This document shows positions 3,860-12,850 of a DNA stretch of 64,000 nucleotides, one piece after another. A program made the translations under genes and the position numbers. This DNA comes from Escherichia phage vB_EcoM_JE01. The notes below the pieces were generated by a model that did no database searches, had not been told where the DNA came from, and worked only from the letters and a program-made list of their open reading frames with translations. How positions within the stretch are numbered: the first letter of the stretch is position 1; each line of letters opens with the position of its first letter. Location: sequence record PQ471460.1; one strand, written 5' to 3'.

Positions 3860-4845
3860 TGAAAACAGTAATGAAAAGCTATTTTGGTAGTCATCTTTAT
3901 GGAACTTCTACTCCAGAATCTGATGTAGATTTTAAAGAAATCTTTGTTCCTCCTGCTCGCGATATTCTTATCGGAAATGTTAAAGAGCATATGAGTAAAA
4001 ACACTAAAGATGATATTGACCATGAACTATACAGTCTTAAGTATTTCTTTAAATTAGCAGCAGACGGTGAAACTGTAGCATTGGATATGCTTCACACTCC
4101 ACCTGAACTAGTAGTTAAATCTGATTTGCCTGATGTATGGAAGTTTATTCAAGACAATCGTTCACGGTTTTATACGACTAACATGAAATCCTATTTAGGA
4201 TATGTCCGCAAGCAAGCTTCTAAATATGGTGTTAAGGGTTCTCGTTTGGCCGCATTGCGTGATGTATTGAAAGTAGTTAATCAAATCCCCGATCAGTGGG
4301 TTGATTACCGAGAAGATGGAACACAAGGACAACGTCGTACTAAAATTGCAGATATTAAACACCGTCTTCCAGAGAACGAGTTCTGTGAATGGGTATTCCA
4401 TAACCACGAGAAAACAGGTCCTCAAACGTTCTATACTGTTCTTGGACGTAAGTACCAAACCACCTTGTCTTTAATCGAGCTCAAGCAATCTCTGAATAAG
4501 CTCGATGCGGAATATGGTGAACGTGCTCGTAAGGCTGAAGCTAATGAAGGTATTGACTGGAAAGCTCTGAGTCATGCTTATCGCGCAGGGTATCAATTGA
4601 TGGAAATCTACCAAACAGGTGATTTGGCGTTCCCATTGCGCGAAGCCTCTATCATTAAGCTGATTAAAGCCGGTGAATTACCATTTAAAGAAGTTCAAGA
4701 ACTTCTTGAAGATACTGTTGATTTGGTTGAAGTCCTAGCCATCCAGGCAGCTAAGAACGGTATGCCTGATAAGGTAGACATGAAGTTCTGGGACAAGTTC
4801 GTTGAAGAGGTATATCTTGAAAACCACCGAAGTTATTATAAATGA
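3856..4845 (+). CDS. predicted nucleotidyltransferase (Pol-beta superfamily fold)
   Basis: 329 aa; N-terminal GS-x10-DVD (YFGSHLYGTSTPESDVDFKEIF) typical of Pol-beta-type NTases, with a further acidic residue about 50 aa downstream (VALDMLH). Confidence 0.65.
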   Translation: MMKTVMKSYFGSHLYGTSTPESDVDFKEIFVPPARDILIGNVKEHMSKNTKDDIDHELYSLKYFFKLAADGETVALDMLHTPPELVVKSDLPDVWKFIQDNRSRFYTTNMKSYLGYVRKQASKYGVKGSRLAALRDVLKVVNQIPDQWVDYREDGTQGQRRTKIADIKHRLPENEFCEWVFHNHEKTGPQTFYTVLGRKYQTTLSLIELKQSLNKLDAEYGERARKAEANEGIDWKALSHAYRAGYQLMEIYQTGDLAFPLREASIIKLIKAGELPFKEVQELLEDTVDLVEVLAIQAAKNGMPDKVDMKFWDKFVEEVYLENHRSYYK

Positions 4846-4847
4846 TA

Positions 4848-4872
4848 GGGAGCCTTCGGGCTCCCTTTTTTG
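4848..4872 (+). terminator. rho-independent terminator (UUCG hairpin + T-run)
   Basis: gggagcc-ttcg-ggctccc TTTTTTG. Confidence 0.7.
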
Positions 4873-4894
4873 TTTAAAATGACGTCACAAAGTT

Positions 4895-4924
4895 GTTTAC
4901 AAGCATAAAGCTTTATGGTACTAT
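4895..4924 (+). promoter_or_regulatory. T4-type early promoter
   Basis: GTTTAC, 18 nt, TGGTACTAT; followed by conserved leader CAACTATCAACT. Confidence 0.6.
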
Positions 4925-4959
4925 ACAACTATCAACTGATGTGGATTTGGGGGAATAAA

Positions 4960-5109
4960 ATGAAAACTACGTTAATTGAAGTAAAAAAGTTGATTGACAC
5001 AGAAGAGATTTCAGCTTGTTTTGAAAATTTCTTAGAAGATGCAACTGAAGATAACGCAGTTTATCTCGCTCAGAAAATTATAGAAACATATTTGGAGCAG
5101 AATCAATGA
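4960..5109 (+). CDS. hypothetical small protein
   Basis: 49-aa ORF downstream of the promoter. Confidence 0.4.
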   Translation: MKTTLIEVKKLIDTEEISACFENFLEDATEDNAVYLAQKIIETYLEQNQ

Positions 5110-5369
5110 CAGTTTACGTAGATGTTTTAATGAATCATGGATGGAAACTTCGCGGTCATCCAACTAAAAATTGTCATATGTTCACTGATGGAGATATTGA
5201 AGAGCTTCATGAAATGGCAGAAGCAATAGGAATGAAACGCTCTTGGTTTCAAGATAAACGCATTAAACATTATGACTTACACGCGCGCCGCCGCCAAAAA
5301 GCCGTAGAACTTGGAGCTGTAGAAGTATCTCGTCGCGAAGCAGTAAAAATTTGGCGAACATTAAAATAA
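5106..5369 (+). CDS. hypothetical protein
   Basis: 87-aa basic ORF (ATGA overlap); no confident family assignment. Confidence 0.55.
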   Translation: MTVYVDVLMNHGWKLRGHPTKNCHMFTDGDIEELHEMAEAIGMKRSWFQDKRIKHYDLHARRRQKAVELGAVEVSRREAVKIWRTLK

Positions 5370-5372
5370 ATT

Positions 5373-5402
5373 GTTTACAGTAGGGTAGTAGTGTGATACT
5401 AT
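5373..5402 (+). promoter_or_regulatory. T4-type early promoter with stem-loop
   Basis: GTTTAC ... TGATACTAT; inverted repeat tagggta/taccct flanks the -10. Confidence 0.55.
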
Positions 5403-5438
5403 TACCCTATCAAAACAAATGTTAAATTGGAGAATAAA

Positions 5439-6407
5439 ATGAAAACTGTAACTATCAATAAGGGTATCTACTTCGGTAAAGAAATCTCTGGAACTTTTGA
5501 GCTCTTAGGCGAATGGTTCCCAGATAATGCTCCGGTAGATGCACAGGGAGATGGTAAAGTTTTTGTTGAAATTGACGGTAAACGTCGCGGTGTTTGGGTT
5601 TACAAATCAGATATTTCATATGATGGTGTAAAAGTTGAAGAAGTTAAAGAATCATATGAAGATATGAAAACCCGCATTAATAAAAGATTTAATGTTATGG
5701 GAATGATGACGAATGGTATTATTAATGGAAATATTCGTTCATTGATTATCTCTGGCGCAGCAGGTATTGGTAAAACGTATTCTTTAGATAAAGCTTTAAA
5801 TAAAGCAAATGATAATGGATACATTGAATATAAAAGCATTAACGGTAAAATCTCTGGTATTGGTCTTTATGAGCAGCTTTGGAATAATCGTGAAGAGAAT
5901 TCTGTCCTTTTGATTGATGATGTGGATGTTTTCTCTGATATGGACATTCTTAATCTTCTAAAAGCTGCTCTGGACACTGGAGAGACCCGTAAAGTCTGCT
6001 GGAGTACTGCGTCTTCTTACTTAGAAGAAAAAGGCATTGAGCGTGAGTTTGAATTTAAAGGAACGATTGTTTTTATCACAAACGTTGATATTGACCGCGA
6101 ATTAGACCGTGGTACTAAACTTGCTCCACACCTACAAGCATTAGTGTCCCGCTCAGTTTATTTAGATTTGGGTGTTCATACTAATGAAGAAATTATGGTC
6201 AGGGTTGAAGATGTTATTCTTTCAACTGACATGATGCAAAAGCGCGGTCTTTCTGATGAAGAAACTTATAAAGCATTATCATGGATGAAAGTTAATGTTA
6301 ATCGTTTACGCAATGTTTCACTGCGTACTGCTCTTTATCTTGCTGACTTTATTATGACCGACAAAAACGGTTGGGAAGAAATTGCTGAAACGGTATTATT
6401 AAAATGA
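5439..6407 (+). CDS. predicted P-loop NTPase (AAA-like ATPase)
   Basis: 322 aa; Walker A GAAGIGKT and Walker B LLIDDVD; SD GGAG before ATG. Confidence 0.65.
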   Translation: MKTVTINKGIYFGKEISGTFELLGEWFPDNAPVDAQGDGKVFVEIDGKRRGVWVYKSDISYDGVKVEEVKESYEDMKTRINKRFNVMGMMTNGIINGNIRSLIISGAAGIGKTYSLDKALNKANDNGYIEYKSINGKISGIGLYEQLWNNREENSVLLIDDVDVFSDMDILNLLKAALDTGETRKVCWSTASSYLEEKGIEREFEFKGTIVFITNVDIDRELDRGTKLAPHLQALVSRSVYLDLGVHTNEEIMVRVEDVILSTDMMQKRGLSDEETYKALSWMKVNVNRLRNVSLRTALYLADFIMTDKNGWEEIAETVLLK

Positions 6408-7123
6408 AAAAATATTTTACTATCTATAAAACTGAAATATTAAATTTAAAGACAGGTATTAAGAAATACTATTATGGTCGACATATAACTAATAACATCA
6501 ATGATTCGTATGTTGGTAGTGGAAATTATATAGAACGTGTAAAAGTGTCAAATGACCACATATTATCAAAAACGGTTTTAGAAGTTTTTGATAATTATGA
6601 TAAAATGGTACAAGCTGAAATATTATATATCATGGCAGGTAAATTGAAATATGGAAAAAACTGTGTTAACCTGTCATACGGGGGTGAAGGAGGAAAGGTT
6701 GCAGATGAAACTAGGATAAAATGCAAAAAGCATTCTATAAATTTATGGAAAAATCCTAATCATATACAGCATATGAAGAAAAAGATGAAAGAGGTTACAT
6801 CCACGCCGGAAGCTAAATTAAACACTTCAATAAAAACTTCGCAACGATATAAGGACCCAGTTTTTGTTAGAAAAGTTAGTAATATTATTAAAAAGAAACT
6901 AAGCAATCCTGCAGTAAAAGAAAAGCATATTAATGGAATTAAAGCTGCAAAGCGTTCTCATTTAACTATATGGCAGTATGAAGATGAATTATTCGAGCTT
7001 TGGAAAGAAACTAAATATGGATGGAGAAAATTTACAAAGGAAGCTATAAAACACGGATATCCAAATGAACCGTATCGTAGTATGGTATCAACTTTTCAGA
7101 AAAGACATTTAGAAGAATCCTAA
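6404..7123 (+). CDS. putative Seg-like (degenerate GIY-YIG) homing endonuclease
   Basis: 239 aa, lysine-rich and AT-rich; N-terminus FTIYKTEILNLKTGIKKYYYGRH resembles GIY-(10-11)-YIG; C-terminal basic repeats typical of DNA-binding modules. Confidence 0.5.
   Translation: MKKYFTIYKTEILNLKTGIKKYYYGRHITNNINDSYVGSGNYIERVKVSNDHILSKTVLEVFDNYDKMVQAEILYIMAGKLKYGKNCVNLSYGGEGGKVADETRIKCKKHSINLWKNPNHIQHMKKKMKEVTSTPEAKLNTSIKTSQRYKDPVFVRKVSNIIKKKLSNPAVKEKHINGIKAAKRSHLTIWQYEDELFELWKETKYGWRKFTKEAIKHGYPNEPYRSMVSTFQKRHLEES
6404..7123 (+). mobile_element. putative free-standing homing endonuclease gene
   Basis: Same ORF as above; compositionally distinct from neighbours. Confidence 0.4.
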
Positions 7124-7206
7124 GACAAAAAAGGCAGTTCAGAAATAGATTATATGGACTGCCATTAAAAAGATGACTAGAACTAAACTGGTGAATGGAG
7201 GTAGTG

Positions 7207-7509
7207 ATGTTATACTCAAAGGCTCGTGAAATTTACGAAACTAAAATTAAAGAAGCTGTATTTCAGTTCGCAACAACGATGCGATGGACAAATGATTGGG
7301 AGTATTCAAAAAATCATAAGAAGCCCCTGGTGACAAGAAAGGCTCATATGTTAGTGTTAATAGACCGTGAGCAGATTAAAGCCCGAGAAGCCCTCCAGAA
7401 TCATAAAAAGGCTGCCTTTGAATGGTTTATGGATAACACTGCTCCTGAGACTAAGAAAGTGGTAAGTGCTTGGTTCAGTGGAAAAAATTGTGAAAGAAGT
7501 TTCTTTTAG
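7207..7509 (+). CDS. hypothetical protein
   Basis: 100-aa ORF with SD GGAGG upstream. Confidence 0.5.
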   Translation: MLYSKAREIYETKIKEAVFQFATTMRWTNDWEYSKNHKKPLVTRKAHMLVLIDREQIKAREALQNHKKAAFEWFMDNTAPETKKVVSAWFSGKNCERSFF

Positions 7510-7511
7510 TG

Positions 7512-7564
7512 GTTTACAAGACTGTTCCTCTGTGGTACTATACAACTATCAACTACGGAGGAAC
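7512..7564 (+). promoter_or_regulatory. early promoter inside a stem-loop (PeSL-type cassette)
   Basis: GTTTAC, 18 nt, TGGTACTAT; stem gttcctctg/cggaggaac encloses the -10 and forms the SD; near-identical copy at 60741-60793. Confidence 0.6.
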
Positions 7565-7569
7565 AGAAA

Positions 7570-8097
7570 ATGAACGCTAAAGATATTTTCAACTTAGTAA
7601 ATTATAACGATGGTAAATTTAAATCTGAAGCACAAAGCAAGTTCTTTAACGACATCTCAATCGGAGGTGAAATCACTGTTGATGGAGGACAAATTTACAA
7701 ATCACGTTGGAATTGGATCGTTATTATTGATGAGATTGGTATTGTAGAAATTTACAAGAATACGAATAAAAATCGTACATTACACTGGTCTCGTGATACT
7801 AACGAACAGTACAAAAAGGATAAAGCATCTAAAATGTCTCGTGTAACTCAAGAAGATATTGAGTTCATCAAGAAAGATATTTTAATGTATGATAACTTAA
7901 TTGCTGAAGAGCAAGCTGTTATTGATAAATTTGACGAGATTAAAGCTTCTCGTGAAATTCCTGATTTTATGAAAGAATCAGTAAATGAACGATACTCTCT
8001 CATTTCAGAGCGTATTGAAACTTACAAAAAGCAAAGAGCTGAACGCCAAAATACTCTTCGGAAGTTTGAAGAACGGTTAAAGACGGTACTCGCATAA
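7570..8097 (+). CDS. hypothetical protein with coiled-coil C-terminus
   Basis: 175-aa ORF immediately after the cassette. Confidence 0.6.
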   Translation: MNAKDIFNLVNYNDGKFKSEAQSKFFNDISIGGEITVDGGQIYKSRWNWIVIIDEIGIVEIYKNTNKNRTLHWSRDTNEQYKKDKASKMSRVTQEDIEFIKKDILMYDNLIAEEQAVIDKFDEIKASREIPDFMKESVNERYSLISERIETYKKQRAERQNTLRKFEERLKTVLA

Positions 8098-8152: not shown

Positions 8153-8560
8153 ATGAAACGGTTGATAATTAAAAGATTGAATTTATTGATATGTTGTTTA
8201 TGTATAGTAGTTGCATATGGTTATTACGCAATTAATGATTATATGCACTATAAAGATTATGATGTTACTGTAGTTAATACTATTACAGGAACTCAAGGAA
8301 AGGGGTCTAGTTTATCGTTTATTGCCGTATATGAACTCAAAGACGGTTATAGATTTAGTGAATATATTTCCCCAGAGATGTATTCTTCAATAGAAAAAGG
8401 TGATAATATTACTGTAAGTTTACGTCCTTTCGACGTAAAACAGACACTGTTTGATAATATTGTTTGGTTCTTTGGGATGGTATTAGTTCAATCCGTGTGT
8501 GGCGCTTATGTAGTTTGTTCAATCATATTCTGTGTATTTAGTAAAATTGAAATTGAGTGA
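8153..8560 (+). CDS. predicted membrane protein
   Basis: 135 aa with N- and C-terminal hydrophobic helices. Confidence 0.55.
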   Translation: MKRLIIKRLNLLICCLCIVVAYGYYAINDYMHYKDYDVTVVNTITGTQGKGSSLSFIAVYELKDGYRFSEYISPEMYSSIEKGDNITVSLRPFDVKQTLFDNIVWFFGMVLVQSVCGAYVVCSIIFCVFSKIEIE

Positions 8561-8567
8561 GGAAAAT

Positions 8568-9458
8568 ATGTCAGTAGTAATTAATAATGTCAATGCAGTA
8601 ATTAAATCTTTAGTTAATAAAAAAATGATGAATGAATGGACTGTACTTCGTCGTGGAGAGCCAGATAAATTTTTTCATAGATTTAACCCAACTTTGGATT
8701 TGAATGTTATTGATAAAGATGTTCATGCCGAAATTTTAGATAAGTTTAAAGTTGATATTGGATTTGGATTAGAAAAACATTTACAGCGAACAAATGGATC
8801 TGGAATGAGTTTATCTAATCGCATTATGAAAGCCCTTAATAAAATTGGAGCATTGTCTCGTATTAACGCGAGTGAAATCCTTCGTAATTATAATAAAGGA
8901 TATGACCTTTATGGTCGACTAATGCCGAAGTTATCATTTGACCAAATGATAGCAGATTTGTGGGAAAATCAACGACGATTATTAGCATTAGGCGCTCGAT
9001 TAGCTAAAGGTCTAGATAAACAAATGATTTTTAAGACCAATAATACAGAAGACCTTAAATGCTTTAAATTTAGTATTCGCGGAGATGATTATTATATCAG
9101 AGCTCGCTCTACAGATTATGTTAATATGGGGCATCATCTCTGTTTAGCTTTTGAAGTTTTAAAAGAAGCTGGAACATTAGAATATTCATCTGGTGCAAAA
9201 TGCCCTATCGGTTCAAGTTGTATTTTAATTTATCGCCCGAATGAATCCAGTTCAACTACATTGCCTATGAAACCTGCGCCAGTTCGTAGTAACGAAAAAC
9301 ATTCTGAACAAATTGATTATTTTAATAAACAGATTGAAGAGCTGAATATTTCTATTCAACAATATGACGATGAAATTTTCAGACTATCTGGATTGAGTAG
9401 TAAAGCTAAATCTGAGCGTGAAAAGTTAATTAAAATCGTTGATTTACTTAAATCTTAA
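8568..9458 (+). CDS. hypothetical protein, member 1 of a four-gene tandem array
   Basis: 296 aa; SD GAGGAAA; C-terminal K/E-rich heptad-like helix. Confidence 0.6.
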   Translation: MSVVINNVNAVIKSLVNKKMMNEWTVLRRGEPDKFFHRFNPTLDLNVIDKDVHAEILDKFKVDIGFGLEKHLQRTNGSGMSLSNRIMKALNKIGALSRINASEILRNYNKGYDLYGRLMPKLSFDQMIADLWENQRRLLALGARLAKGLDKQMIFKTNNTEDLKCFKFSIRGDDYYIRARSTDYVNMGHHLCLAFEVLKEAGTLEYSSGAKCPIGSSCILIYRPNESSSTTLPMKPAPVRSNEKHSEQIDYFNKQIEELNISIQQYDDEIFRLSGLSSKAKSEREKLIKIVDLLKS

Positions 9459-9466
9459 GGAATACC

Positions 9467-10495
9467 ATGAAAACTCGTTCTCAAATTGAAGATATGGTTC
9501 GTAATGCCAGTTATACTCGTGATGTTATGACATTTTTGTGTGAAAATAATTTAGACCCTGATAAAGTTAATCGTGTTATTCATCACTTTAAGTATACGAA
9601 TAGCAGTGAATGGGTGCGTAATTTTAGTAAAGCGGGATATATTACACAAATGACTGCTCGTGAGCAGCTCACCGATTTCTGTAAAACTATTGATTATAAA
9701 AATCCTTTATTTGTTCAAGGCGTTGGTCAAAGTAAGGTCGATTTATCATCTGGATTTTTCAATCCAAATCATTATCGTATTGAATGGAGATTTATTGCTC
9801 TGTTCCGTAGACAATTAAAGCAAATTTTATCAACTGCGAGTCGATTAAAAGGTTCTGATATTAACTTAAAGAACTTGAAATTTGATGGTTATACTCTTCA
9901 GATGGAAGTAAGACCATTAAAAGAAAATAACAGAACTGCACGAATTAGCTTTAAACCTAATACAAAAAATTCTCTTTCAATTTGCGAATGCCTTAAATCA
10001 CAGTTGACAGAAGCATTTAAGTATATGGATGTTGTTGCCGCTGTTCAGTCTAAGATTTTACCTCGTTTTGAGCGAAATTGGGAACATACAACAACGTATG
10101 AACTTGATATGATCGTTTCATTTAAATACGATTTTTTGAGAAAGGACGAAGTCACGCAAGAGAAAAAGCAGGAAGTGCAAGATAACTTAAATTTAAATTT
10201 ATCCAATTACTCATCAAACGATCCTAAATTTTGGATGTATAGCTCAAGCAATATAGATGCATGTAAACTTAATAAAGTGAGTTTTCTTCCTACTGAAAAT
10301 TCAAATTTTAAACCTGTAGAAAAATGGCACGCTGACGCGATTGAGAAGTCTCTTAAGGCAGTAGATGATGAACTCGTTAAAGCGACCAATGAAGTGCTAG
10401 AAGCTGAAAAGGTGTTAGAACAAGCTCAGTCAAGGGTTCAAAATCTGACAAAGCAACGTTCTAAACTGAACAATGCACTAAATGCACTGAACTAG
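9467..10495 (+). CDS. hypothetical protein, array member 2
   Basis: 342 aa; starts MKTR as member 4 does; C-terminal coiled-coil-like segment. Confidence 0.65.
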   Translation: MKTRSQIEDMVRNASYTRDVMTFLCENNLDPDKVNRVIHHFKYTNSSEWVRNFSKAGYITQMTAREQLTDFCKTIDYKNPLFVQGVGQSKVDLSSGFFNPNHYRIEWRFIALFRRQLKQILSTASRLKGSDINLKNLKFDGYTLQMEVRPLKENNRTARISFKPNTKNSLSICECLKSQLTEAFKYMDVVAAVQSKILPRFERNWEHTTTYELDMIVSFKYDFLRKDEVTQEKKQEVQDNLNLNLSNYSSNDPKFWMYSSSNIDACKLNKVSFLPTENSNFKPVEKWHADAIEKSLKAVDDELVKATNEVLEAEKVLEQAQSRVQNLTKQRSKLNNALNALN

Positions 10496-10524
10496 TTTAC
10501 TTTGCCACAAGGATGTGGTATAAT
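10495..10524 (+). promoter_or_regulatory. T4-type early promoter
   Basis: GTTTAC, 18 nt, TGGTATAAT; module ccacaaggatgtggtataat repeated at 55750. Confidence 0.6.
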
Positions 10525-10552
10525 GTTCTTACTTTCTACTGAGGAGATTAAT

Positions 10553-11554
10553 ATGACTCGTAACGAATATATCAAATCATTCAATAGTGTTATTGATGAT
10601 AAAGCTATACCGATGTTTGGTCAAAATAGCGTTATTTCTATTATCAATCAATGGCTCAATAGTGTTGATGCAAGTATTGTTTCTTCTGCTAAATTTATTC
10701 ATGAAATTCGTAAAATTTCTAGCCGTGTAGATAAAGATGTTATCAAGAAAACCTTTAAAGAGTCTCGTCTTCTTTCATATTTGGTTAATCGAGATATTCT
10801 TGGTAATTTTGGGAAAGAAATTAAACGAACCAAAGATGTAGTAGGATATAATTGGTTCGGTGATGTTAATTCTTATCATCTTAATAATAAAGAAGACCCT
10901 GAGAATATTTTTACTCGTCGTTGGATTAGTAATTTCAGACTTTTCAAAAAGCAAATTCTAAAATCAGCTTCTAAATTATGCTATGGCGATTATCGTCAAA
11001 TTCATCCTTGGGCTTCTGATATGATTATCATAAAAGAATATGAGCTTGATAAAAATAAAGCAGCTATTTTTGTGAATTATGAATTTTTTACACCAGACGC
11101 TAACCAAAAGAATATTAATAAATTTTTCTCAATTGCTAGCACTATAACTCGTCAATTAGAAACCGCATTACTTTGTATGGAAACAGTAGAAAATATTCAT
11201 ACTTATCCTTTTAAGAATGTGTGCGGTTGGGAAGGATACAAAATTGTAGTTAGTCTTCGTGAAGTAAAGTGTGCTTATTCACTAACTGATAAAGAAATTT
11301 ACCAACAAAAATGCGAAGAAATTGTGAATACTCCTAAAGAAGAAACTACCCTTGAGGAACTAATGGATAATCTTGATGATTCACCTGAATCGGTAGAAAT
11401 TCGTCCAGAAGTTATTGCATTAGAAAAAGCTTATAAAGAAGCTCTAGAAATTTCTAATAAAGCGCAGAAAGAATATGAGCAGGCTAAAAGGATTTGGGAA
11501 GAATCTGTTAATCGCCTGGATCGTCTTGAACAAGCTTTACAGTTAATTAAGTAA
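10553..11554 (+). CDS. hypothetical protein, array member 3
   Basis: 333 aa; SD GAGGAG; C-terminal coiled-coil-like segment. Confidence 0.65.
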   Translation: MTRNEYIKSFNSVIDDKAIPMFGQNSVISIINQWLNSVDASIVSSAKFIHEIRKISSRVDKDVIKKTFKESRLLSYLVNRDILGNFGKEIKRTKDVVGYNWFGDVNSYHLNNKEDPENIFTRRWISNFRLFKKQILKSASKLCYGDYRQIHPWASDMIIIKEYELDKNKAAIFVNYEFFTPDANQKNINKFFSIASTITRQLETALLCMETVENIHTYPFKNVCGWEGYKIVVSLREVKCAYSLTDKEIYQQKCEEIVNTPKEETTLEELMDNLDDSPESVEIRPEVIALEKAYKEALEISNKAQKEYEQAKRIWEESVNRLDRLEQALQLIK

Positions 11555-11606
11555 TTTAAAGCCAAGGATGGCTCGGAGTATAAATCATTAACTAAGTGAG
11601 AAGAAC

Positions 11607-12536
11607 ATGAAAACTCGTAAACATTATATTGATTATTTTGACAGTCTTATTACTAAACATCGTAATTATCAGATCGGGCACAGAGCAGTAATCAATAATA
11701 TTCTTCGTGATTTCCTTCAATATGTTGGCCAGGAAAATCATATCTGTAAAGATACTCAAAACGCTTATTCTCATTCGTTAGGCAATTTGCTTCAATGGTT
11801 TAAACGTTCTCGTCTGTTATCTTCTACTGTAGCTAGTGATAACATTAAAAACTTTATGAAGCCGAGCTTCATTAAATCTGCGACATCTATAACCGATTTG
11901 GTTGAATTTACTATTGTTAACGATGTTAAAAAGACCCATTTGGCTGATTGGTTATCTACCATTCCTGAAACTAAATTTGCTGATAAATTCGCTTGTCAAT
12001 TCAATGACCAAGTGAATATGCTTTTTAAGCATGCTCGTAAACTATTTACTGCAGGTGATGACCGTACAAATACAGTTCATGTTAAGGACTGGGTTATTGC
12101 TGATGAAGTAACACACAAGCCAGGTGGTTCATCAGTATTAATTAATATCCAGGTTCCTTATTATTACTCACGTAATCTCGGCACCATGACAGCTAGAGAA
12201 ATTAATAAGCACAACAAAACTATTCGTTCGTTGTCTTATAAACTCTGCACGATGGTGGAGATGATGGACGTAGTTGAAATGTATGACGAAACCGAAGATA
12301 ATGGTTCAATGCTGTACAGTTCACGCATTCTAATTAAACTGAAGAACCCTAATACATATAAGCCAGTTGTAAAAGAACCTAAAGTAGAAAAGATTGATAA
12401 CCTGAGTGAAGAACGCGAATATCTTAATACACGTTTAATTGAAGTTGAAAAACAGATTGAAGAGCATACTAAAGTTCTTAAGGCTTTAACCGCCAAAGCA
12501 AATGGTTTACGTAATGCTATTGAGGTATTGAAATGA
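11607..12536 (+). CDS. hypothetical protein, array member 4
   Basis: 309 aa; starts MKTRKHY; C-terminal coiled-coil-like segment. Confidence 0.65.
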   Translation: MKTRKHYIDYFDSLITKHRNYQIGHRAVINNILRDFLQYVGQENHICKDTQNAYSHSLGNLLQWFKRSRLLSSTVASDNIKNFMKPSFIKSATSITDLVEFTIVNDVKKTHLADWLSTIPETKFADKFACQFNDQVNMLFKHARKLFTAGDDRTNTVHVKDWVIADEVTHKPGGSSVLINIQVPYYYSRNLGTMTAREINKHNKTIRSLSYKLCTMVEMMDVVEMYDETEDNGSMLYSSRILIKLKNPNTYKPVVKEPKVEKIDNLSEEREYLNTRLIEVEKQIEEHTKVLKALTAKANGLRNAIEVLK

Positions 12537-12850
12537 AAAAGCGCTTATTAGAAGATATTGCAGCTTCAAGTAATTCCAGTCTAATTAAAATTATTATGGC
12601 TGGTGAAGAAGACGATTTAGAAATGCGTGGAAAGATTCATGGCTGTGACGATCTAGACTTTAAACCTCCTGCTTGGGATGCCATTATGGTTATGGTTGAA
12701 CGCCGCGAAAGGGCTTCTAAGAATGTTCCGAACTGCCCAAAATGTGGTACTGAACAGGTCCAATTGATTAACTGGCGTAAACCAGAGCTTGAATATAAAT
12801 GTCGTCATTGCAAACACCGATTTAACCGAGAAGAAAATGACCAAGCGTAA
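12533..12850 (+). CDS. zinc-ribbon protein
   Basis: 105 aa; CPKCG-x19-CRHC four-cysteine motif near C-terminus. Confidence 0.6.

Follow-up and report, generated by a model that had tools for sequence, protein, structure and literature searches.

Four consecutive genes of Escherichia phage vB_EcoM_JE01 (sequence record PQ471460.1) were analysed within a 64,000-nucleotide stretch of that record, referred to below as the window. These open reading frames (ORFs), called here A, B, C, and D, correspond to the T4 genes nrdC.6, nrdC.5, nrdC.4, and nrdC.3, and we consider it reasonably probable that they are counter-defence paralogues of ancient divergence, arranged in tandem, built on one scaffold and confined to T4-like phages. 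The T4 ORFs have long been annotated, one of them with a published phenotype, and the array is not a new kind of system.

Over 5.4 kb around the array, identity to Escherichia phage Killian is 97.4%; the region has matches in 743 phage records, which come almost without exception from Tequatrovirus and its relatives. The plus strand of the window corresponds to the minus strand of the T4 map, with which it is collinear from nrdC.8 to nrdC; compared with the T4 reference, the order is mobD, ..., nrdC.8, nrdC.7, nrdC.6, nrdC.5, nrdC.4, nrdC.3, nrdC.2, nrdC.1, nrdC, ..., gene 49. The genes and the features discussed below are located in Table 1. When consulting a mechanical ORF list one should keep in mind that ORF A opens there at the GTG at 8532, upstream of its ATG, and ORF C at the TTG at 10502.

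Table 1. Genes of the array, their parts, and neighbouring features, in window coordinates (aa, amino acids; omega, ratio of nonsynonymous to synonymous substitution; pLDDT, predicted local distance difference test)
Feature	Position	Strand	Description
ORF A, nrdC.6 orthologue	8568..9458	+	296 aa from ATG; PHROG 2257; Pfam Phage_T4_Y05B PF26899
ORF B, nrdC.5 orthologue	9467..10495	+	342 aa; 94.2% identity to T4; Pfam DUF7235 PF23882; PHROG 2351
ORF C, nrdC.4 orthologue	10553..11554	+	333 aa from ATG; 94.0% identity to T4; PHROG 1435
ORF D, divergent nrdC.3 allele	11607..12536	+	309 aa; 62.5% identity to T4; PHROG 1435; Pfam Phage_T4_Y04OP PF26897
Core of A, aa 88-151	8829..9020	+	KALNKIGALSRINASEILRNYNKG ... 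DQMIADLWENQRRLLALGARLAKGLDK; omega 0.05
Core of B, aa 50-131	9614..9859	+	VRNFSKAGYITQMTAREQLTDFCKT ... EWRFIALFRRQLKQILSTASRLKGSD; omega 0.04
Core of C, aa 65-148	10745..10996	+	KKTFKESRLLSYLVNRDILGNFGKE ... RRWISNFRLFKKQILKSASKLCYGDYR
Core of D, aa 62-153	11790..12065	+	LQWFKRSRLLSSTVASDNIKNFMKP ... DKFACQFNDQVNMLFKHARKLFTAGDDR
Variable body cassette of D	11815..12400	+	45-75% DNA identity to T4; flanks 90-99%
Tail of A, heptad helix (hairpin in model)	9303..9455	+	ends KLIKIVDLLKS
Tail of B, heptad helix	10310..10492	+	~59 residues, pLDDT 83-91; ends KLNNALNALN
Tail of C, heptad helix	11405..11551	+	ends RLEQALQLIK
Tail of D, heptad helix	12405..12533	+	DNA 90-96% identical to T4 despite diverged D body
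Promoter-like site, B-C spacer	10496..10524	+	TTTACT, 17 nt, TATAAT, extended TG; in context GTTTAC...TGgTATAAT; consensus match only
nrdC.2, zinc-ribbon protein	12533..12850	+	105 aa; start overlaps D stop (ATGA at 12533); context, not family member
nrdC.8	7570..8097	+	175 aa; conserved upstream neighbour; helical tail; context, not family member

Paralogy and shared architecture

A sequence-only reading of this DNA had described four consecutive ORFs of 296, 342, 333, and 309 aa, two of them starting MKTR, with weak similarity between members and a heptad-like helix at each C-terminus, and had inferred paralogy only from size, arrangement, and tail pattern. The ORF coordinates, all on the plus strand, agree with the sizes and the order, and the proteins that start MKTR are B (MKTRSQ) and D (MKTRKH), C starting MTRNEY. 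Pairwise similarity is as weak as had been stated, BLASTP being significant for C and D alone (E-value 4.5e-7, 25.6% over 227 aa). Reference collections keep A, B, and C with D as three separate families, namely Phage_T4_Y05B, DUF7235, and Phage_T4_Y04OP in Pfam and 2257, 2351, and 1435 in PHROGs, where C and D share one family and A and B each have their own. The full-length PHROG profile matches are strong: C and D match phrog_1435 with E-values of 4.7e-167 and 3.9e-116, and A matches phrog_2257 with 6.9e-151. PF26897 is missing from the Pfam copy searched, and its assignment here follows precomputed annotations on homologues, where it is found on those of D and on one C-type protein; precomputed PF26899 is found on all A homologues. 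B matches DUF7235 (PF23882) over its full length at 406 bits (E-value 1.5e-121), the Pfam gathering threshold being 30 bits, whereas A, C, and D give no match to this model at E-values up to 1. Since their link to B is visible only by profile-profile comparison, we treat A, C, and D as superfamily relatives of B and not as DUF7235 members.

For that comparison, syntenic regions were fetched from other genera, the ORFs of these loci were clustered into 34 family profiles, the last 60 residues were stripped from each candidate member, so that the coiled coil cannot contribute, and all 561 HHalign comparisons were made. Without their tails, C and D align at 98.2% (E-value 5e-14), C and B at 82.7% (E-value 9.6e-6, 169 columns), and A with a bridging family (PM2 gp092 / IME523 gp085) at 85% (E-value 6e-6). 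Scores above 27 were also obtained for A with Yen9 gp94, profile E with Yen9 gp94, C with profile E, B with Yen9 gp111, B with profile E, and B with A, so that 9 of 21 candidate pairs exceed this value, against 4 of 540 background pairs (Fisher p 1.4e-11), and those four resemble true small-family homologues. Alignments between families are long, running collinearly over 59-209 columns, whereas those of the background extend over 11-30. When the A clade and the B/C/D clade were each merged, they aligned over 83 columns at 89.2% (E-value 2.2e-6, score 49.7); the highest score that either reached with 28 unrelated profiles was 22.7.

Profile-profile comparison of the four proteins, supplemented by bridging proteins and clade-level profiles, thus does detect similarity and supports the paralogy that had been proposed. 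Judged by sequence, C and D are certainly paralogous, B and C probably so, and A is probably paralogous to B, C, and D through transitive and clade-level evidence. An iterative jackhmmer search with tail-less bodies against a local ORF database also linked A to C, D, and B; we discount this link, its joining step scoring 13 bits. With reversed-sequence decoys in that run the linkage shrank, and the C query pulled in decoys.

At the DNA level, a repeat search of the array returned short matches only. The sole trace of common origin that it gave is a start context common to B and D in 17 of 19 nucleotides (GAAnnnCATGAAAACTCGT; 9460-9478 and 11600-11618), which spans the start and MKTR codons.

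The tails themselves were assessed by a heptad score, a crude heuristic calibrated on all 84 plus-strand window ORFs of at least 80 aa. All four members are within the best eight of the 84, with the signal at the extreme C-terminus each time; the chance that four adjacent ORFs do so is about 0.003. AlphaFold2 predicts helices at residues 243-272 and 278-295 of A, where the tail is folded back as a helical hairpin, and at 283-341 of B. When the tails of 14 members were anchored at the C-terminus, their hydrophobic profile peaked at a period of 3.5 residues (power 26), with other periods at 1.8 or less save the adjacent 3.6 (14). One heptad register fits them all, with L at d, [A/I/S] at g, [LIMV] at a, L at d, and K at e. 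On the strength of sequence and models, therefore, the heptad-like helix that had been seen in all four is upheld, and the tails show the pattern of a coiled coil, a long predicted helix whose a and d positions are hydrophobic in a heptad repeat. The helix is also shared in the stricter sense that its register and a terminal motif, L-x-x-[A/I/S]-[LIMV]-x-x-L-[KNRD], are conserved across members, A, B, C, and D included. As a regular expression, this motif matches 73 of the 360 ORFs in the fetched loci. Each of the 73 belongs to the family, and the 271 ORFs that fall outside the candidate families, nrdC.8 included, give no match; the pattern was derived post hoc and only its specificity is informative.

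The members appear to have a common architecture: a poorly conserved helical N-terminal segment, a two-helix core, a beta-hairpin/helix/beta-hairpin unit, a disordered linker, and a heptad helix of 45-60 residues. Between paralogues the central core, at about residues 60-150, is best conserved. Its elements are K-x-x-K-x-[SG]...[AN][RS]-x-x-L-x-x-[FY] and then a helix ending [AS]-[SA]-[RK]-[LC]-x-x-G, and in five independent pairwise alignments these two elements of the ~85-residue core coincide. The first 60-80 residues and the beta/linker region are variable, as is the whole central body in D. The earlier suggestion of a variable N-terminal recognition domain joined to a shared helix is therefore not supported in that form: the best-conserved element is the central core, and the linker and the body of D vary as well as the N-terminus.

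The AlphaFold2 model of A (pLDDT 76.8, predicted template modelling score 0.65) was searched with Foldseek against a viral structure library and matched uncharacterised proteins of 300-335 aa (E-values 2e-7 to 4e-4, 12-16% identity) from Pectobacterium phage PM2, Enterobacter phage IME523, Acinetobacter phages Acj9 and Acj61, Yersinia phage fHe-Yen9-01, Klebsiella phage Mineola, and Citrobacter phage Merlin. Four of these were located, all in the same genomic block, PM2 gp092 and IME523 gp085 occupying the exact C/D position immediately 5' of nrdC.2. The order of secondary structure is the same in the A model and in a low-confidence B model (long helix, beta-hairpin, helix, beta-hairpin, disordered linker, long C-terminal helix). 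The family has no relative among solved structures.

One might argue instead that the four are not all paralogous, that unrelated proteins of similar size gained or exchanged a coiled-coil tail, and that the body similarity, especially of A, is due to chance. With full-length HHalign of shallow alignments, only C-D is indeed significant, A-B, A-C, and A-D having E-values of 0.02-0.2 and tail-driven matches confusing the rest; the iterative A-C link depends on the 13-bit step and is not decoy-robust, and an exhaustive HMMER search with a C and D profile missed A and B. We think this explanation quite improbable, however, given that the tail-less cross-family pairs lie far above the empirical null in long, collinear alignments of consistent register, that the structural matches of A include proteins at the C/D position, that A and B agree in the order of their secondary structure, and that the tail register and terminal motif are common to the family and specific to it.

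Distribution, selection, and candidate function

The family is confined to T4-like phages. Searched exhaustively with HMMER against 1.84 billion representative proteins, the C and D profile returned eight sequences, all of C/D type, and did not reach A or B. Word-indexed searches with A, B, and D gave hits of two kinds only, proteins of T4-like phages and evident contaminants of bacterial assemblies, and scans of IMG/VR with the C/D and B alignments found only the three genera already seen. Homologues of NrdC.5 occur on a 489-kb "E. coli" contig and in an "Enterococcus faecalis" assembly, and short ENA proteins fuse nrdC.3 fragments to hydrolase or FAD domains; all are most likely contamination or chimeric assemblies.

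Eleven T4-like genera were seen, seven of them linked by sequence or context; four of these and four further genera are linked by fold, the latter by fold only. Tequatrovirus has A, B, C, and D; Mosigvirus has A, a B-like gene, and D; Gaprivervirus, Dhakavirus, and one uncultured lineage have A, a B-like gene, and C. Mosugukvirus (PM2) and Kanagawavirus (IME523) have a single copy each, and Tegunavirus (fHe-Yen9-01) has two. Acinetobacter phage Acj9 also has one copy, Acj9p122, which has no detectable sequence link to the family and is tied to it by fold and synteny only. A is found in more phage records (741) than B (530) or C (553). Comparison of presence and absence across T4-like phages therefore gives a copy number of 1-4 between genera, that is, fast turnover of the locus, together with split or frameshifted copies and alleles of D. 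In every genus examined except Tegunavirus and Acj9, nrdC.2 directly follows the last family member, whichever paralogue that is (C, D, or the single copy), with an overlap of 4 nucleotides; RB69 (Mosigvirus), at 1 base, is the exception. The overlap suggests functional or translational coupling. Among Tequatroviruses nrdC.2 is unusually divergent (64-88% identity, synonymous divergence dS 0.79).

Selection was measured as omega across eight Tequatrovirus genomes. The values are 0.11 for A, 0.18 for B, 0.18 for C, and 0.30 for D, as compared with 0.03 for nrdC, 0.01 for endonuclease VII, and 0.05 for nrdC.8, and amino-acid change in A to D is 4-10 times faster than in those three genes. All four are nevertheless under purifying selection, which argues that they are real functional genes. 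Constraint is strongest in the tail (omega 0.02-0.14) and, for A, B, and C, in the core-helix region (0.04-0.11); it is weakest in the first 60-80 residues and the linker (0.17-0.32).

D departs from this picture in its body. DNA identity between the window and T4 is 93-99% from nrdC.8 to nrdC.4, drops to 45-75% in D codons 70-265, and returns to 90-96% in the D tail. Three discrete allele classes of D can be distinguished, with ~90-99%, 74-78%, and 61-63% identity to the window protein, and at the sequence level the central body looks like a cassette replaced between conserved arms.

Disruption of copies is common. The T4 reference nrdC.6 (NC_000866, 52066-52893) encodes 275 aa and ends ...KQIEELIFLFNNMMMKFSDYLD, whereas the window gene (9303-9458), like that of most other phages, runs on ...KQIEELNISIQQYDDEIFRLSGL... 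to 296 aa with an intact tail. T2-type phages, too, have nrdC.6 intact. The local DNA identity of 96-98% is consistent with loss of the T4 tail by a 1-nucleotide frameshift, and the altered end of the T4 copy accounts for the ORF A protein being 87% identical to T4 NrdC.6. The nrdC.5-like protein of RB69 has 300 aa (fetched locus 6974-7876) and an unrelated end with no heptad tail, which is probably a frameshift or a sequencing error; that of Mosigvirus UGJNEcP2 has 319 aa (fetched locus 4842-5801) and an intact tail. The B-like gene of SP18 (fetched locus 4956-5860) is split into two ORFs of 170 and 125 aa, and nrdC.4 of one IMG/VR Tequatrovirus genome (fetched locus 4971-6003) into 193 and 158 aa. 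Shigella phage Sf25 has an nrdC.6 of 378 aa with an internal tandem duplication of ~80 residues (IRAHSTDYVNMGHH...KQIEEL repeated), as seen also in Sf22. A 299-aa fusion of B and D, found in metagenomes on contigs of up to 167 kb, opens in B (MEVRPLKE..., residue ~146) and switches to D at ...NKV/NMLFKHARKLF; since the junction falls at non-equivalent positions, it points to a deletion that fused nrdC.5 to nrdC.3 and removed nrdC.4.

As to function, full-text searches of the literature on nrdC.3 to nrdC.6 found one functional report alone. In T4, nrdC.5 counteracts the SIR2 defence Dsr1 and restores infection of E. coli that carry it (Srikant et al. 2022, PMC9391042); the gene is early, non-essential, and dispensable on laboratory hosts, and the study tested no paralogue and proposed no mechanism (PMC9391042). 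A 2026 study found that Dsr1 shares its sensor with Avs7 and recognises the phage major capsid protein. The phage inhibitor DSAD1 is reported to act on DSR2, which is related to Dsr1, by occupying the sensor. No enzyme, defence, or RNA family was matched by the array in Pfam, NCBIfam, PADLOC, or Rfam, the single match to PADLOC defence models being that of the C tail to BrxC, at 14 bits. As regards counter-defence, the functional guess of the sequence-only reading (decoys or modifiers, for example) thus has partial support, since nrdC.5, to which B is orthologous, has a published role of this kind in T4 (PMC9391042). On the basis of their relationship to B we regard A, C, and D as good candidates for counter-defence factors.

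If the four genes are indeed a counter-defence array, their products would be non-enzymatic and probably oligomeric binders of host defence proteins, made on one scaffold. B, 94% identical to T4 NrdC.5, would bind and inhibit Dsr1, probably at or near the capsid-protein sensor, or would block its activation, the model being the action of DSAD1 on DSR2. A, C, and D, with the scaffold unchanged, would have as their targets further defence proteins of the host or different alleles. In this scheme specificity would reside in the body, and the C-terminal helix would serve to oligomerise the proteins and so raise their avidity, or as a shared docking element. Direct binding, different targets for the paralogues, and oligomerisation are all points that we infer. 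An extended form of this scheme, which we put forward tentatively and think unlikely to hold as a whole, is a modular platform of immune-sensor inhibitors, in which the conserved N-terminal and coiled-coil segments serve as recombination arms and the body cassette is swapped among T-even phages, as in D. This would yield a repertoire against pattern-recognition sensors (capsid sensors of the Dsr1/Avs7 type), and the C-terminal motif would assemble homo- or hetero-oligomers or dock a common partner, e.g., the translationally coupled NrdC.2.

The main rival accepts paralogy and holds that nrdC.5 alone is a counter-defence gene, the others having non-immune early functions in some host or phage process or being redundant copies that act on the same target class through the core. 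The functional data are limited to nrdC.5, the core is the most constrained part of A, B, and C, which suggests a common activity, and A is present in 741 records as against 530 for B and 553 for C. Even so, we judge this possible but distinctly less probable, since the block that contains the array is accessory and hyperplastic, and variable copy number between genera, disrupted copies in laboratory strains (T4 nrdC.6, RB69 nrdC.5), and an allele replacement in D that is typical of host-interaction genes are better fitted by accessory, host-specific roles.

Several points weigh against reading the four genes as a counter-defence array, and they should be kept in view. The functional evidence concerns one member and comes from a single complementation experiment in T4 itself (PMC9391042). 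Omega exceeded 1 in no region among the eight genomes, so the term diversifying family, used in the sequence-only reading, is not supported in the strict sense of diversifying selection; and the strong constraint on the core would also fit one shared activity instead of different targets. The placement of A is weak: its direct family-to-family link without tails has an E-value of 0.004 with B and is not significant with C or D, and its linkage is drawn from bridging sequences, merged profiles, and one model of medium confidence. The B model is poor (pLDDT 48.9), because its alignment is more than 88% identical apart from two sequences, so that the bodies may, but need not, have one fold.

Two further explanations were weighed. 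Many GenBank records label these genes "thioredoxin" or "phage-associated thioredoxin", and they do adjoin nrdC, nrdD, and nrdG, so that a thioredoxin-like or nucleotide-metabolism role might be supposed. We give it next to no credence: Pfam and NCBIfam yield no match to thioredoxin or glutaredoxin for any of the four, none contains CxxC, whereas the genuine NrdC of the window has CVYC, and the label traces to the nrdC.x names, which denote map position only. There is likewise a very small chance that these are structural or scaffolding coiled-coil proteins, with a part in virion assembly, membrane fusion, or surface exclusion, as hinted by sub-threshold matches of the tails to V-SNARE, PgrA surface exclusion, and keratin, and by PHROG 194 head scaffolding (for nrdC.8). 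Those matches are far under curated cut-offs and involve the heptad helix only, and the genes lie in an early, non-essential region, nrdC.5 itself being early and dispensable on laboratory hosts (PMC9391042).

Neighbouring genes and expression signals

Upstream of the array, nrdC.8 should not be mistaken for a fifth member. Its K/E/R-rich C-terminal helix is heptad-like and has a high heptad score, and its protein, with the low omega given above, is 98% identical to that of T4. It has no body similarity, no family core, and no terminal motif, and we therefore count four members. A 2026 paper on DRT1 names nrdC.8 "nucleotide reductase", which appears to be another misreading derived from the gene name. 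Between nrdC.8 and ORF A lies nrdC.7 (8153-8560), which encodes a predicted membrane protein of 135 aa and in RB69 and PM2 is found on the other side of the array. The label "Mur ligase domain-containing protein" (HY01, IME537) belongs to nrdC.7 and not to the array, and no such domain is detectable. A homing endonuclease gene of the MobD type (GIY-YIG) is located at 6404-7123, ~1.4 kb 5' of the array, and mobile endonucleases could contribute to local mosaicism.

Within the array, the spacer between B and C contains a site that, by its consensus, resembles a T4 early promoter. In the C-D spacer (11555-11606), a short hairpin (GCCAAGGATGGC) precedes GTATAAATC, a sequence similar to the late-promoter box of T4, TATAAATA. 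Several of the ribosome-binding sites include the RegB cleavage motif, GGAG.

Relation to known families and systems

T4 is the best-studied phage, yet of the four genes nrdC.5 alone comes with a phenotype. Nothing was found in the searchable literature, Pfam, or PHROGs on the unification of the three families across genera, on its architecture and terminal motif, or on the cassette allele of D. The analysis extends a single anti-Dsr1 gene to a family and offers three concrete candidate counter-defence genes in T4 (nrdC.3, nrdC.4, and nrdC.6), whose function becomes directly testable, and one to four candidates per genus across the eleven T4-like genera seen. Targets for mutation are suggested as well: the core as common machinery, the body cassette as a candidate specificity determinant, and the tail as a candidate assembly element. 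Finally, the analysis corrects the widespread misannotation of nrdC.3 to nrdC.6 as thioredoxins.

The closest known protein is T4 NrdC.5 (DUF7235). B is its orthologue at the same map position; its core motifs and tail, and apparently its architecture, recur in A, C, and D, which differ in giving no match to the DUF7235 model, and the Dsr1 phenotype is published for T4 nrdC.5 only. Pfam PF26897 and PF26899 and PHROGs 1435, 2257, and 2351 hold C with D, A, and B as unrelated families, which are joined here in one superfamily. This superfamily also takes in PM2 gp092, IME523 gp085, and fHe-Yen9-01 gp94 and gp111, and, by fold only, Acj9p122.

DSAD1, from the SPbeta group, is similar in that it is reported to be a small phage protein, not an enzyme, which inhibits an NADase defence of the SIR2 type by occupying the sensor domain. 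It differs in having no relation in sequence or fold to the NrdC.5 family, no paralogue array, and no coiled-coil tail, and its target DSR2 senses the tail tube, whereas Dsr1 senses the capsid protein.

The anti-toxin-antitoxin island of T4 (dmd, tifA, and adfA) and the internal proteins IPI-IPIII offer a likeness of another kind, as small clusters of accessory genes, each directed against a different host defence, variable between phages, and readily lost in the laboratory (PMC9391042). The genes of those clusters are not reported there as mutually related, whereas nrdC.3 to nrdC.6 are, on the evidence above, probably diverged copies of one scaffold.

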